Below are positions 58,374 through 62,810 of a stretch of DNA of 64,000 nucleotides, one piece after another. The translations under genes and the position numbers were made by a program. The notes below the pieces were generated by a model, which was not told the origin of the DNA, made no database searches, and worked only from the letters and a program-made list of their open reading frames with translations. This DNA comes from a bacterium (GTDB lineage: Bacteria > UBA10199 > 2-02-FULL-44-16 > JAAZCA01), in NCBI GenBank assembly GCA_963674695.2, contig CAXXGI010000003.1:576001-640000 (forward strand). Reading direction: 5' to 3'. Each line of letters opens with the position of its first letter. The first letter of the stretch is position 1.

Positions 58374-59186
58374 ATGGTTGACGAATCCGTGGCGCTCCCC
58401 TATTTCACCCTCATGCCAAAGACCGGAGCAAAGTTCGAGAAGCTGGTGGCAATCATGTCGCGTCTGCGCGCACCCGATGGCTGCCCGTGGGACCGGAAGC
58501 AGACCTATCGCGACATCGCGGCGCACACGCTCGAAGAGACGCATGAGGTGATGGAGGCGATCGATCGGGAGAACTTCACCGATCTCTGCGAGGAATGCGG
58601 CGACTTAGTCCTGCAGGTCATCTTCTATGCCCAGATGGCGCGAGAGGACGGACACTTCACGATCGACGACGTCATCGATGCGATCACGAAGAAACTCATC
58701 CATCGCCATCCGCACGTCTTCGGCGAATCGAAGGTCGCCGATTCGAACGAGGTGGAGGAGCGCTGGGAAGAACTGAAGATGGCCGAGGGAAAAAAGTCGG
58801 TCGTGGGCGGCGTGCCCAAGAACCTTCCCGCGCTGCTCAAGGCGTTTCGCCTGGGCGAGAAGACCTCGCGCGTCGGCTTCGACTGGGGCGATGCCGAGGG
58901 GATCCTGGCCAAGGTCGAGGAGGAGACGCGCGAGTTGCACGAGGCGAGCCAGTCCCAGGATCGCGAGGCGATCGATCACGAATACGGCGACCTGCTCTTC
59001 ACGCTCGCCAACCTCGGCCGATTTCTCGGCCTCGACCCCGAGGGCAGCCTGCGCCGCGCCACCGAACGCTTCAGCGCGCGATTTCAACACATGGAGCACC
59101 AGTGCGAAAGCGACAACAAGAAACTCCAAAAACTCACGCCGGAGGAATGGGATACGCTGTGGGAACAGGCAAAGAAACAGGTATGA
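58374..59186 (+). CDS. mazG: Nucleoside triphosphate pyrophosphohydrolase MazG
   Basis: LRAPDGCPWDRKQT, EECGD, RHPHVFG, GFDW; start may be 58413. Confidence 0.96.
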   Translation: MVDESVALPYFTLMPKTGAKFEKLVAIMSRLRAPDGCPWDRKQTYRDIAAHTLEETHEVMEAIDRENFTDLCEECGDLVLQVIFYAQMAREDGHFTIDDVIDAITKKLIHRHPHVFGESKVADSNEVEERWEELKMAEGKKSVVGGVPKNLPALLKAFRLGEKTSRVGFDWGDAEGILAKVEEETRELHEASQSQDREAIDHEYGDLLFTLANLGRFLGLDPEGSLRRATERFSARFQHMEHQCESDNKKLQKLTPEEWDTLWEQAKKQV

Positions 59187-59318
59187 ATTATGAATCGACT
59201 GCTGCAATAGTCACAATATGATCGCACAGAAGAAATGAGTGGTTGCGATATCATCACACAATTGTCTTCCGATTTCTGATGATGATCTTGATCTTGATGT
59301 TGATTTCTGATTACCGGC

Positions 59319-59651
59319 TCACCTGAGCCGGTAGAGCATCCGGCTGATTCGATCTGCCCTTTCCTTGTTCTCCATTTCACATCGTGCCGGAATCAAGGAG
59401 AATGCGGCGGCCAGATCGATGCAGGCCGACACCTCCGCGAGCGAAGCCCTGGAGATCTGAAAGAAGCGCTTTCGTTCCCCCTTGCCCATCCGAGCATTGC
59501 CCTCCGCCAAGTTGAGCACGACGGAAGCCATGGCCCTTCTGAGCTGATCGACCAGATAGCCGTACCCACGTGGCCATCCACCGGAGAGCCCCCCGAGCTC
59601 CTTCGCCAGAGTGATCGATTCCCGGTAACAGTCCAGTTTTTCATGTAGCAT
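59319..59651 (-). CDS. Four-helix bundle protein (TIGR02436 / 23S-IVP / Avd-like), copy 1
   Basis: HEKLDCY...LVDQLRRAMASVVLNLAEG...RFFQISRASLAE; GGGAGG RBS. Confidence 0.88.
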   Translation of the reverse strand: MLHEKLDCYRESITLAKELGGLSGGWPRGYGYLVDQLRRAMASVVLNLAEGNARMGKGERKRFFQISRASLAEVSACIDLAAAFSLIPARCEMENKERADRISRMLYRLR

Positions 59652-59655
59652 TTGA

Positions 59656-59731
59656 GCCTCCCTGTGGTGGTTAATTTTTTTTGCCCCCCGACCGGGCGAG
59701 GGGCAAAAAAAATTAACCACCACAGGGAGGC
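59656..59731. repeat. Central near-perfect palindrome holding both RBSs
   Basis: 32 bp perfect arms 59656-59687 and 59700-59731 around a 12 bp quasi-palindromic CCGG core. Confidence 0.95.
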
Positions 59732-59734
59732 GTC

Positions 59735-60070
59735 ATGAATCATGAAAAACTGGACTGTTACCGGGAACTCATCATGGTCTCGAAGGAGCTCGGGGGGCTC
59801 ATGAAAGGATGGCCGAGAGGCTCTGGCTATCTGGTCGATCAGCTCAGAAGGGCCATATCGTCTGCTGTGCTCAACTTGGCGGAGGGCAACGGCAAGCGGG
59901 GGCAACCACGTGAACGAAAGCGCTTCTTTCAGATCTCGATGGGATCCATCGCGGAGGTGGCAGCGGGCCTGGATCTGGCCGCCGCATTCTCCTTGATTCC
60001 GGCACGAGTACAGGAGGAGAATAAGGCGATTCTGCGAGCAGCATACAACCGGATCAGGAGACTCTCCTGA
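59735..60070 (+). CDS. Four-helix bundle protein (TIGR02436 / 23S-IVP / Avd-like), copy 2
   Basis: HEKLDCY...LVDQLRRAISSAVLNLAEG...RFFQISMGSIAE. Confidence 0.88.
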   Translation: MNHEKLDCYRELIMVSKELGGLMKGWPRGSGYLVDQLRRAISSAVLNLAEGNGKRGQPRERKRFFQISMGSIAEVAAGLDLAAAFSLIPARVQEENKAILRAAYNRIRRLS

Positions 60071-60222
60071 TCCGGCTCCGTTATCGATATCTCGAAGAAT
60101 CGGTTTCTCCCAATCGGTTCTCGGTTTTCCGTTTCGGTTTGAAATGTCAGGCGGGGTGATAACGGCACATTGTTGTTGTCAGATCCAATAGTGATCACTA
60201 CAATTCACTTCATTCACCACTT

Positions 60223-60549
60223 ATGACCTACAATCGTTGGACAACCGCCATCATGCTCAACGCCTTCGTCTTTCCCGGTGCCGGGCATTGGCTCATCGGT
60301 CGTCGCCTTTCCGGCGTGATCATCGGCGTGCTCGCCGTTATCTTTTTGATGACACCGCTAGCGGCCTACACGCGGACCACACTGCACCTCTTTTCACTCC
60401 TGAAGTACAAGGGCACCGGTCTTTCGATGATGGGCCAGGCGTGGACCATGAACCAAGACCTCATCCTCTGGTGCCTGGCCGGCCTCGTGATCACCTGGGG
60501 ATTTGGAATTCTGGATCTGGTGGTGAGGCGGCGACGCCGTGAACAGTGA
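60223..60549 (+). CDS. Small membrane protein
   Basis: FPGAGHW motif, hydrophobic segments, basic tail. Confidence 0.7.
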   Translation: MTYNRWTTAIMLNAFVFPGAGHWLIGRRLSGVIIGVLAVIFLMTPLAAYTRTTLHLFSLLKYKGTGLSMMGQAWTMNQDLILWCLAGLVITWGFGILDLVVRRRRREQ

Positions 60550-60682: not shown

Positions 60683-61222
60683 ATGCTCAACTTACGTTCC
60701 AAAGTCGCGCGCGAACTCTTGAGTTTCTTCTTTCTCCACGAGGAGGAGGGATACTATGTCAATGAACTCGCGCGCCGTCTCAAACTCGACAAACGCAACA
60801 TGGCCAAGAAGCTCGCCGAGTTCGAAGCGGATGGGCTCTTTCAGTCCACCCTGTCCGGACATCAGAAGTACTATTCGCTGAACCGCTCCTTCCCCCTCTA
60901 TCAGGAATACCGTCAGTTCGTCCTCAAGACAGCCGGTCTGGAGGCACAGCTTCGCGAGGCACTTCGAGAGATCCCAGGCATCTCGCACGCCTACCTGTAT
61001 GGTTCCTACGCCTCAAACCGCATGGACGCATCGAGTGACATCGACCTCATCATCATCGGCGACCACAAGGTCATCGAAGTTCAGCAGGCCATAGCCGCAT
61101 TGCAGAAGAAGCTCGATCGCGAGATCAACCTGGTCAACCTGAGCGAAGACGAGTTCCGTGCGAAGGCCGACGATCCCTTCCTCGTCGACATCATGAAGAA
61201 CGATCGACTGCAGCTCATATGA
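60683..61222 (+). CDS. wHTH + minimal nucleotidyltransferase (MNT-type antitoxin)
   Basis: YVNELARRL HTH; YGSYA...SDIDLIIIG. Confidence 0.88.
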   Translation: MLNLRSKVARELLSFFFLHEEEGYYVNELARRLKLDKRNMAKKLAEFEADGLFQSTLSGHQKYYSLNRSFPLYQEYRQFVLKTAGLEAQLREALREIPGISHAYLYGSYASNRMDASSDIDLIIIGDHKVIEVQQAIAALQKKLDREINLVNLSEDEFRAKADDPFLVDIMKNDRLQLI

Positions 61223-61670: not shown

Positions 61671-62810
61671 ATGAAAATCGAGCAAAAACAATGGACGACG
61701 GTCGATGGCTGGACGGCGTGCTGCGGCGGGTTGGAAGGAGGAACAGCCGAGCTCGTCCTCGTATTCGGAGCGACGGCGCTGCTCAAGGAGAAAAGTCTGC
61801 TGGAGGAAATCTCCGGGATGTATCCTGAGGCCCATGTCTGCGGCTGTTCGACGGCCGGCGAGATCTGCTGCACGGACGTTCGCGACGATTCCCTCGTGGT
61901 GACGGCTATCCATTTTGAGCGGACACAGGTGCAACCGGCTTCGATATCCATGAAGGAGGTCCAAGACAGCCGCGAAGCGGGAGAGCGACTCGCGCGACTG
62001 CTCCCGAAGGAGCAGCTGGTTCACGTCTTTGTCCTTTCCGACGGCCTGGCCGTCAACGGGAGTGACCTGGTCAGGGGAATGACGGAGCATCTGCCGCCGT
62101 CGGTGACGATCACAGGTGGTTTGGCTGGAGACGGAGCACGTTTTCAGGAGACACTCGTGCTGAGCGACGGAGCGTCGGTTTCCGATGTCATCACCGCCGT
62201 CGGTTTCTACGGGGATGGCCTCAAGGTCGGTCACGGATCTTTCGGAGGATGGGATCCCTTCGGCCCCGATCGCCTGATCACGCGATCCAAGGGAAACGTG
62301 CTCTTTGAAATGGATGGCACATCGGCGCTCGTGCTCTACAAGGAGTACCTCGGCGAATACGCCGATGATCTTCCGGCAGCGGGATTACTCTTCCCCTTGA
62401 GCGTCCGAGAACAGGGAAGCGAAATCAGCTATGTCCGCACCCTCCTTGCGGTGGATGAGGATGCGGGGAGTCTGACATTTGCGGGCGACGTGCCCCAAGG
62501 CGCTACGGCTCGCCTTATGAAGGCGAACTTCGATCGTTTGATCGACGGGGCCGTCCAAGCGTCACATGCCGGTTTGGAGATGGTCGGTTCAGTGCCGCCC
62601 GACCTGGCGATACTCATCAGCTGCATCGGTCGGAAACTCGTTCTCAAACAGCGGGTTGAGGAGGAAGTCGAGGGTGTTCGCGACGTACTGGGAGGGCAGT
62701 GCTTTCTGACGGGTTTTTACTCCTATGGGGAGATCGCCCCTGCCTTGTCCGGAATCCCCGCAGGGCTTCATAACCAGACCATGACGATCACGACGTTATC
62801 GGAGAAATGA
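61671..62810 (+). CDS. FIST signal-transduction protein
   Basis: GCSTAGEI, GGLAGD, GWDPFG, SCIGRK, GFYSYGEI, LHNQT. Confidence 0.93.
   Translation: MKIEQKQWTTVDGWTACCGGLEGGTAELVLVFGATALLKEKSLLEEISGMYPEAHVCGCSTAGEICCTDVRDDSLVVTAIHFERTQVQPASISMKEVQDSREAGERLARLLPKEQLVHVFVLSDGLAVNGSDLVRGMTEHLPPSVTITGGLAGDGARFQETLVLSDGASVSDVITAVGFYGDGLKVGHGSFGGWDPFGPDRLITRSKGNVLFEMDGTSALVLYKEYLGEYADDLPAAGLLFPLSVREQGSEISYVRTLLAVDEDAGSLTFAGDVPQGATARLMKANFDRLIDGAVQASHAGLEMVGSVPPDLAILISCIGRKLVLKQRVEEEVEGVRDVLGGQCFLTGFYSYGEIAPALSGIPAGLHNQTMTITTLSEK

Follow-up and report, generated by a model that had tools for sequence, protein, structure and literature searches.

How can two neighbouring genes be identical down to their silent sites in some blocks and almost unrelated in others? 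The question is raised by a locus in a 64,000-nucleotide (nt) stretch of a bacterial genome of the lineage UBA10199 (assembly GCA_963674695.2, contig CAXXGI010000003.1, positions 576,001 to 640,000; hereafter the window), in which two short genes, A and B, diverge from a common centre between mazG on one side and a gene for a small membrane protein (60223-60549) on the other. Our results show that A and B form the core of a ~1-kb palindromic cassette, dispersed in multiple copies and without a transposase gene, and suggest that its ancient A/B paralogues probably undergo arm-to-arm conversion while two products are retained.

The mirror arrangement about position 59693/59694, from which a preliminary description of this DNA had set out, was found at the claimed place. 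The open reading frames (ORFs) of gene A (59319..59651, minus strand, 110 aa) and gene B (59735..60070, plus strand, 111 aa) are divergent, and a repeat finder placed the axis of the inverted arms at the same point, with an innermost pair at 59656-59693/59694-59731 (38 nt, 95% complementary), followed by pairs at 59497-59645/59741-59889 (149 nt, 83%) and 59363-59477/59912-60026 (115 nt, 83%). In a protein-guided codon alignment, A and B are identical at 241 of 336 nt and carry the same residue in 74 of 112 columns; the codon differs in only 11 of these 74 columns, and all 11 adjoin blocks in which amino acids change, the mismatches forming clusters rather than scattered wobble pairs. The alternation of identical and diverged blocks noted earlier is thereby confirmed, and all four identical runs that had been quoted recur in the alignment. 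Four runs of at least 26 nt are present, as many as in none of 10,000 shuffles of the codon columns, and the identical blocks therefore exceed chance expectation; the longest of them, 36 nt, was reached by 300 of the 10,000 shuffles.

Whether this mosaic reflects a young duplication or exchange between old paralogues was addressed with 40 distinct complete A/B cassettes gathered from this genome, its relatives, and public metagenome-assembled genomes (MAGs). In a maximum-likelihood tree of the 80 proteins, built from a short alignment (111 columns) that leaves many forks unresolved, the A/B label requires 2 changes, whereas shuffled labels need 27 on average; a tree constrained to a single A clade had a better score and was not rejected (approximately unbiased [AU] test, p 0.565), and type-specific residues are shared across genomes. 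A and B are two protein clades that predate the diversification of the cassettes. That each cassette is instead its own recent inverted duplication, with A and B merely young duplicates, would fit the lower silent divergence within pairs than between cassettes, but the two clades across 40 cassettes and the type-specific residues common to different genomes make this very improbable.

The silent sites, in turn, group by cassette. Among 36 non-redundant cassettes (less than 85% identical), compared in 630 quartets that share sequences, informative synonymous sites were cassette-wise in 5,633 cases, type-wise in 931, and crosswise in 758, and the cassette-wise pattern was ahead in 603 of the quartets; without exchange, the cassette-wise class is expected to equal the crosswise class. 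The median silent divergence (pS) was 0.62 within pairs versus 0.81 between cassettes, with within-pair values ranging from 0.39 in the window to 0.785, which is saturation with no detectable exchange. Most of the 630 quartets compare cassettes of different genomes, where shared genomic codon usage rather than conversion could mimic cassette-wise sharing, and a within-genome control was run for this reason. The 56 same-genome quartets still gave 363 cassette-wise against 97 crosswise sites (225 were type-wise), with the cassette-wise pattern ahead in 41, and same-residue codons are identical at 62 of 72 positions within the window pair (binomial p against 0.48, 1.6e-11) compared with 43-48% (20/47 to 29/60) between different cassettes of this genome; codon usage is thus an extremely improbable source of the likeness. 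The preliminary description had asked whether paralogues in one genome share silent sites beyond orthologues, and in both sets of quartets the silent sites go with the cassette more often than with the protein type.

Since the proteins cluster by type and the silent sites by cassette, the data point to ancient paralogues under recurrent arm-to-arm conversion. Two features expected of gene conversion were found, namely, paralogues that predate their loci and silent sites that group by locus beyond homoplasy and codon bias, and the mosaic has probably arisen because the inverted arms repeatedly recombined or converted each other in patches. The earlier proposal that the arms are homogenised while two protein types are kept is supported by the same combination. 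According to this explanation, the inverted arms would recombine or convert repeatedly in patches, leading to silent sites shared within the cassette; conversion tracts overwriting type-specific residues would mostly fail to persist, and selection for two different subunits would act as the filter on exchange. It is plausible that selection acts against conversion tracts that cross diagnostic residues.

What the two products are is clearer for their fold than for their activity. A and B belong to the family PF05635/TIGR02436 (23S rRNA intervening sequence [IVS] protein, four-helix bundle), protein A with an E value of 6.4e-20 and 71.8 bits for PF05635 (cut-off 33.8) and 61.9 bits for TIGR02436 (cut-off 24), and protein B with an E value of 2.8e-13 and 50.4 bits for PF05635 and 47.5 bits for TIGR02436. 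AlphaFold2 models have four long helices each (predicted local distance difference test [pLDDT] scores of 95.2 for A and 96.3 for B). The best solved structures found by Foldseek for protein B were 2GSC, a PF05635 structure deposited with five chains (template modelling [TM] score 0.88; also matched in a profile search at E 7e-18), 2RLD, which is labelled 'S23 ribosomal protein family' (about 0.8), and Avd, the accessory protein of diversity-generating retroelements (DGRs), from the DGR of a Bordetella phage (4DWL, TM 0.72). Profile, model, and structure comparisons therefore agree with the earlier assignment to a four-helix-bundle family shared with Avd and the rRNA IVS proteins. Comparison of the four intact copies in this genome reveals strong purifying selection on A as well as B, with ratios of nonsynonymous to synonymous divergence (pN/pS) of 0.08 for A and 0.06 for B. 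By analogy with Avd pentamers, A and B might act jointly as a putative hetero-oligomeric nucleic-acid-binding barrel, a suggestion that we put forward tentatively.

A different kind of constraint is seen between the genes. A central hairpin containing both ribosome-binding sites was found in 40 of 40 cassettes, with a stem of about 33 pairs in single-sequence folds that extends from the complement of one Shine-Dalgarno sequence to the other Shine-Dalgarno; the intergenic region measures 81-94 nt, or 142 in one case. In the window, this palindrome occupies 59656..59731 (38-nt arms; RNA fold of -64.7 kcal/mol, 34 pairs). Stem sequences vary widely between cassettes, even within a single genome, and RNAalifold, applied to a MAFFT alignment, identified compensatory changes in 13 of 13 inner stem pairs, the only ones that it recovered because indels misalign the outer stem. 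The stem persists even where the coding arms of a cassette have reached silent-site saturation, which suggests that the central hairpin is constrained independently of them, although conversion over very short distances would give the same picture. We see an even chance that the hairpin serves either as a 5' leader in which the ribosome-binding sites are hidden or, at the DNA level, as a cruciform or a site of recombination. In many A and B genes, the stop codon likewise sits in a GC-rich hairpin, which lacks a T-run; in the window, the stop-codon hairpin of gene A is at 59314..59331 (minus strand; read in the sequence, with counterparts that fold in many related cassettes) and that of gene B is at 60049..60075 (plus strand; 13-nt arms, 100% complementary, conserved among copies).

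These structures bear on an alternative in which the silent identity of the coding arms is held by selection for long-range pairing, as an RNA or DNA fold-back of ~700 nt, and not by conversion. The conserved hairpins at the centre and at both stop-codon regions would fit such a fold-back, as would an element that is palindromic right to its ends. Against it, because within-pair pS reaches saturation, several cassettes lack arm pairing beyond the centre although their genes and central hairpin are intact; the A-B mismatches are clustered and not of the wobble type; and G-U pairs are equally frequent on the two strands (68 versus 67), so that no transcribed strand is singled out. There is also a sign of physical exchange: the central loops of L058 and L059, related cassettes of one genome, are exact reverse complements, as would be expected if the arms had recombined. 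Classified with a crude motif rule, the orientation of the asymmetric loop relative to A and B is forward in 16 cassettes and reverse in 6, with 18 unclassified. Silent identity of the coding arms that ranges from strong to none is better explained by episodic conversion than by a pairing constraint, and we consider long-range pairing quite unlikely. Of the earlier proposal that the arms pair as a hairpin, cruciform, or double-stranded RNA, the part that stands concerns the ~85-nt centre and the two stop-codon hairpins, which are the only consistently structured parts. The idea that the flippable loop is a promoter switch was dropped, since the sequence that prompted it (TTGTCA-17-ATAAAG) occurs in few cassettes and is absent from most, including that of the window. 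Position profiles upstream of A and B contain only the Shine-Dalgarno motif and A-rich arms.

A palindrome of this kind may also be produced by fold-back during assembly, and short-read contigs (from 3-4 runs) do break inside the repeat, none spanning the centre; one short-read contig contains a joint from 59385 to 59981 that matches an internally deleted derivative elsewhere in the genome (C1:1028107-1028475). Such an artefact is, of all the explanations weighed here, the least credible, considering that one assembly of three contigs holds four intact copies with different sequences and centres, that 35 further distinct cassettes come from other assemblies, and that each of the two diverged arms encodes a protein under purifying selection.

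Is the cassette, then, an element or simply a locus? The gene pair indeed lies within the span 59312..60075 originally delimited, but the repeat proved larger: similarity among copies is confined to about 59203-60202, outside which the sequences are unrelated, and this segment is a ~1-kb imperfect palindrome with terminal inverted repeats. Outwards from the centre, it consists of the outward-pointing A and B genes, the stop-codon hairpins, word repeats, and the terminal inverted repeats. The left flank (59228..59313) is made of GAT-rich short word repeats (copies 47-78% identical, versus 30-37% outside the element) and the right flank (60076..60177) of CGGTT/CCGTT-type word repeats (57-78% versus 30-41%). 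The left terminal inverted repeat (59203..59227) marks the start and the right one (60178..60202) the end of similarity among copies; compared with each other without gaps, the two termini match at 18 of 30 positions in the window copy and at 20 of 30 in the copy C3:18335-19410. In this genome, the terminal 25-mers, the left one included, recur (with up to 6 mismatches) only at cassette copies or remnants, plus one site with 6 mismatches.

The genome (3.03 Mb, three contigs, C1 to C3; coordinates are given as contig:position) yielded 22 matches in a six-frame search with protein B. BLASTN with the window region identified four intact copies, that of the window included, the others being C2:896580-897511, C3:6645-7542, and, in inverted orientation, C3:18335-19410; a divergent A/B pair (C3:919104-919811); and several degraded copies, among them derivatives with the centre replaced or deleted (C3:56280-57295, C3:796345-797306, C3:245464-246183, and C1:1028107-1028475) as well as end fragments. 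Compared with the window copy, the genes of the other copies are 89-97% identical, the centre 39-78%, the flanks 47-78%, and the sequence outside 30-41%; the internally deleted derivatives retain both cassette ends. The intact cassettes at C3:6645-7542 and C3:18335-19410 are inverted relative to each other and lie 11 kb apart, separated by genes for a sigma factor and type III/flagellar export proteins (FliI/EscN-like ATPase, YscO/FliJ, FliN, and FliP).

Insertion is best seen at the window locus itself. Among twelve other genomes of the same family, 11 have a mazG match, and in nine of these mazG is followed within about 45 nt by a homologue of the membrane-protein gene at 60223-60549; a tenth shows the same by eye, and one has something else after mazG. 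In the window, the corresponding gap is 1,036 nt and is filled by the cassette. The cassette is inserted at the mazG junction, which in relatives is an uninterrupted gene pair. Two other loci were uninformative. At the permease/TamB locus, synteny is not conserved in relatives, and the Sua5/DciA interval of relatives holds a methyltransferase-like ORF, leaving no simple empty site; this ORF, about 200 aa and similar to S-adenosylmethionine (SAM) methyltransferases, is present in two relatives (loci L156 of G012 and L159 of G001), whereas our genome (C3:245400-246322) has a degraded cassette in this interval instead.

These observations have to be set against the view that the cassettes are immobile: paralogous loci of long standing that segmental duplication or ordinary recombination has spread and that are passed on by vertical descent. 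In its favour, the intact copies of this genome differ by pS of 0.11-0.36 and copies in other genomes are only 65-82% identical, and neither a transposase with matching ends nor a target duplication was found. On the other side, similarity ends sharply 115-130 nt outside the genes, at the inverted termini and in unrelated contexts; the cassette splits a mazG/downstream junction that is intact in relatives; internally deleted derivatives keep both ends; and the distribution is patchy. Immobility is therefore unlikely in our judgement. Multiple copies, conserved inverted termini, and sharp boundaries are those of an element bounded by terminal inverted repeats, and we favour, with some reserve, the possibility that the cassette is, or was, mobilised in trans via its inverted or hairpin ends. 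The earlier suspicion of an undescribed fold-back element is upheld to the extent that there is a dispersed multi-copy palindrome with inverted ends and an empty site.

The agent of such mobilisation was sought around the copies and among related loci. Ten copies have unrelated housekeeping genes as neighbours (permease/TamB, flagellar or type III, purine, kinase, and serpin genes); within about 3.5 kb of these copies, no ORF encodes a transposase or reverse transcriptase. A Y1-like match lies near only 1 of 108 related loci and is itself a fragment. Elsewhere in this genome, a ~70-nt palindrome-containing tandem repeat flanks a Y1_Tnp (IS200-like) gene (C3:157420-158142) in an arrangement (C3:157369-158433) resembling those of repetitive extragenic palindromic (REP) sequences and REP-associated tyrosine transposases (RAYTs); the same repeat is found at C1:429267-429405, C1:519134-519382, and C1:520739-520941, and one unit of it occupies the replaced centre of three degraded cassettes (in the regions of C3:56672, C3:796700, and C3:245797). 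The cassette itself was rejected as a REPIN/RAYT unit, the repeat that flanks the Y1_Tnp gene being a different sequence.

Cassettes are found well beyond this genome, but not everywhere. Head-to-head pairs with 83-95-nt spacing occur in 12 of 41 relatives searched (this genome counted), and cassette-type matches (E <=1e-20) in 16 of 93 genomes of the class, from 4 of its 24 families, with a maximum of 24 matches in one 2.5-Mb genome. A scan of one genome per species returned 350 stretches encoding relatives, of which the best 80 were kept; 57 of these 80 loci come from MAGs labelled Myxococcales, Bdellovibrio, delta proteobacterium, Oligoflexia, or Pseudomonadota and mostly have an A/B pair where the contig permits, and the remaining 23 are single genes from other phyla. 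In L052, L057, and L095, a B-type gene lacks a partner despite upstream room. The search for head-to-head TIGR02436 pairs in other genomes, proposed at the outset, was thus successful, and the 40 distinct cassettes used above are its yield together with the copies of this genome.

A small two-gene unit that is multi-copy and patchily distributed may also call to mind a toxin-antitoxin-like or anti-phage module that persists by addiction or defence, and an AbiEii gene is located some 1.6 kb from one degraded copy. We regard such a module as improbable: no PADLOC model was matched by protein A or by protein B (0 families each), the neighbourhoods are those of housekeeping genes, and the two genes are paralogues of one fold, an arrangement not known for toxin-antitoxin pairs.

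The nearest precedents for the conversion are the tufA/tufB genes of Salmonella and Escherichia coli and the palindromes of the human Y chromosome, in which inverted paralogues evolve in concert by gene conversion. As in the cassette, the paralogues are older than the species, silent sites are shared per genome or locus, tracts are patchy, and arm recombination can flip the intervening DNA. The cassette differs in maintaining two protein types, in being a 1-kb, multi-copy unit that is palindromic to its ends, and in having as its axis a conserved hairpin that holds both ribosome-binding sites. As for its form as an element, miniature inverted-repeat transposable elements (MITEs), mobile insertion cassettes, and REPINs (mobilised by RAYT/Y1 proteins) are multi-copy, intergenic, and without an internal transposase, with inverted or hairpin ends and internally deleted derivatives. 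Our cassette has the same intergenic location, ends, lack of transposase, and deleted derivatives, but it encodes two conserved proteins, and no cognate transposase or target duplication was found.

Other comparisons start from the protein family. IVS-like sequences are dispersed in some genomes. Ralph and McClelland reportedly noted in 1993 that 23S rRNA IVSs of Leptospira and Coxiella carry an ORF of the PF05635 family. The IVS shares with the cassette the protein family and an ORF enclosed by inverted repeats; the cassette, in contrast, lies outside any rRNA gene, has two head-to-head genes rather than one, and has its hairpin between the genes and not around them. It was rejected as a 23S rRNA IVS because it sits between mazG and the membrane-protein gene, with no rRNA match in 58900-60500, where Rfam gave only sub-threshold chance matches. 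A passage of a review (PMC10053308) states the likeness between PF05635 and Avd. The four-helix bundle is common to protein B and Avd (PDB 4DWL and 8UBB), but the cassette was rejected as a DGR Avd system, because no reverse transcriptase was present near the ten copies examined; nor were template or variable repeats of DGR type found there, and neither A nor B matched the bAvd profile PF22296 at E <=0.01. A resemblance of another sort is offered by the 'global regulator binding sites' of Geobacter metallireducens, classes 1-3 of which are described in passages of PMC2700814 as intergenic pairs of tandem 7-8-nt word arrays on opposite strands, in dozens of copies, with the word consensus TCTCCGTS, MTYCTGA, and GTTGCTYN, and are interpreted there as sites of IHF/HU. 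The consensus words and the opposite-strand layout resemble the words in the cassette flanks; unlike the cassette, the sites lie in the spacer of neighbouring annotated genes, with no gene listed between paired sites, and these passages state no link to PF05635. Neither the paired A/B cassettes nor inverted word arrays around solitary members were found described in the full-text literature (subscription journals not covered).

A broader reading is that PF05635/TIGR02436 genes are cargo, or a maintenance or mobility factor, of widespread, undescribed small elements bounded by inverted structured DNA. The barrel would then bind the structured ends or their RNA stem, the A/B cassette would be a dimerised, hetero-oligomeric version renewed by arm-to-arm recombination, and the 23S rRNA IVS would represent an element of this kind that had come to lie in rRNA; such elements would be bounded by hairpins and inverted termini in the present genome, and in Verrucomicrobiota, Planctomycetota, and Bacteroidota by inverted arrays of tandem 6-8-nt words. 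We think it rather doubtful that all of this is correct.

Several points weigh against our explanation of the cassette as a dispersed unit of ancient paralogues under arm-to-arm conversion. With respect to conversion, the quartets are not independent, as they share sequences, and in 15 of the 56 same-genome quartets the cassette-wise class does not exceed the type-wise class. Covariation in the central hairpin is predicted equally by conversion and by selection for pairing. The link between diverged blocks and residues diagnostic of type is no more than suggestive (of 8 strict diagnostic columns, 6 lie within diverged codons of the window pair; Fisher p 0.077), and two type-A diagnostic positions of the window copy carry the type-B residue. 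With respect to expression, the promoter scan placed no site within the intergenic hairpin and no promoter confidently. As for dispersal, recent movement is not shown, because the copies, differing by the pS values given above, are not young; mazG is the only clean empty site found; and a target-site duplication was not recognised by eye, the short direct similarity at both ends belonging to the element in every copy, with no copy-specific duplication. A search of this genome for an element that shares the terminal 25-mers (up to 6 mismatches) and bears a transposase was negative, and most of the 40 cassettes come from MAGs.

A promoter scan of the region gave five sites against 0.6 expected. 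A promoter-like candidate at the right end (TTGTCA-17-TACAAT, 60176..60204, plus strand, 10 of 12 matches), a consensus match only, points outwards, immediately ahead of the displaced downstream gene, and a weaker mirror candidate, again a consensus match, lies at the left end (59216-59187, minus strand). Farther downstream in the window are an ORF with helix-turn-helix (HTH) and nucleotidyltransferase (Polbeta/NTP_transf_2) domains (60683-61222) and a gene for a FIST N/C-domain protein (61671-62810).

Solitary members of the family were observed in a setting of their own. In 23 single-gene loci (L103-L130) from MAGs labelled Verrucomicrobiota, Planctomycetota, Bacteroidetes, and Thermodesulfobacteriota, tandem repeats (period 5-10) account for 21.9% of the 200-nt segments that flank the gene, versus 3.2% elsewhere in the loci. 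Tandem hexamer arrays stand on both sides in 19 of the 22 loci with both flanks available, a count that overstates independence because L126 duplicates L122 and several loci are orthologues of one another; each of the 19 combines an upstream unit with its reverse complement downstream (11 exact, 8 with one mismatch). One locus (L105:1040-1202) also holds a gene-less pair of inverted hexamer arrays, (TCGTTC)5 and (GAGAAC)5.5, about 100 nt apart; a PF05635 gene flanked by these same arrays lies 1.8 kb away. The solitary PF05635 members of our genome present a weaker picture, with a 5'-side array in two of three and none in the third. One solitary gene (L140:652-1002, minus strand; C1 around 748.9-750.4 kb) is head-to-head with a Y1_Tnp gene (L140:1432-2178, plus strand), one of three paralogues that are 82-89% identical, and a (CTTCCCA)x4 array lies between both genes.

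For the large family PF05635, whose function outside DGRs, residence in rRNA IVSs, and multi-copy occurrence in many genomes call for explanation, the cassette family offers a defined and testable unit, whose parts are obligatorily paired paralogues, a strictly conserved hairpin that covers both ribosome-binding sites, hairpins at the stop codons, and inverted ends. It likewise offers, in compact bacterial form, a case of palindrome gene conversion balanced against selection for two different products, and the replicate cassettes, of which there are up to a dozen per genome, could serve in measuring conversion tract lengths and the selection that acts on them.

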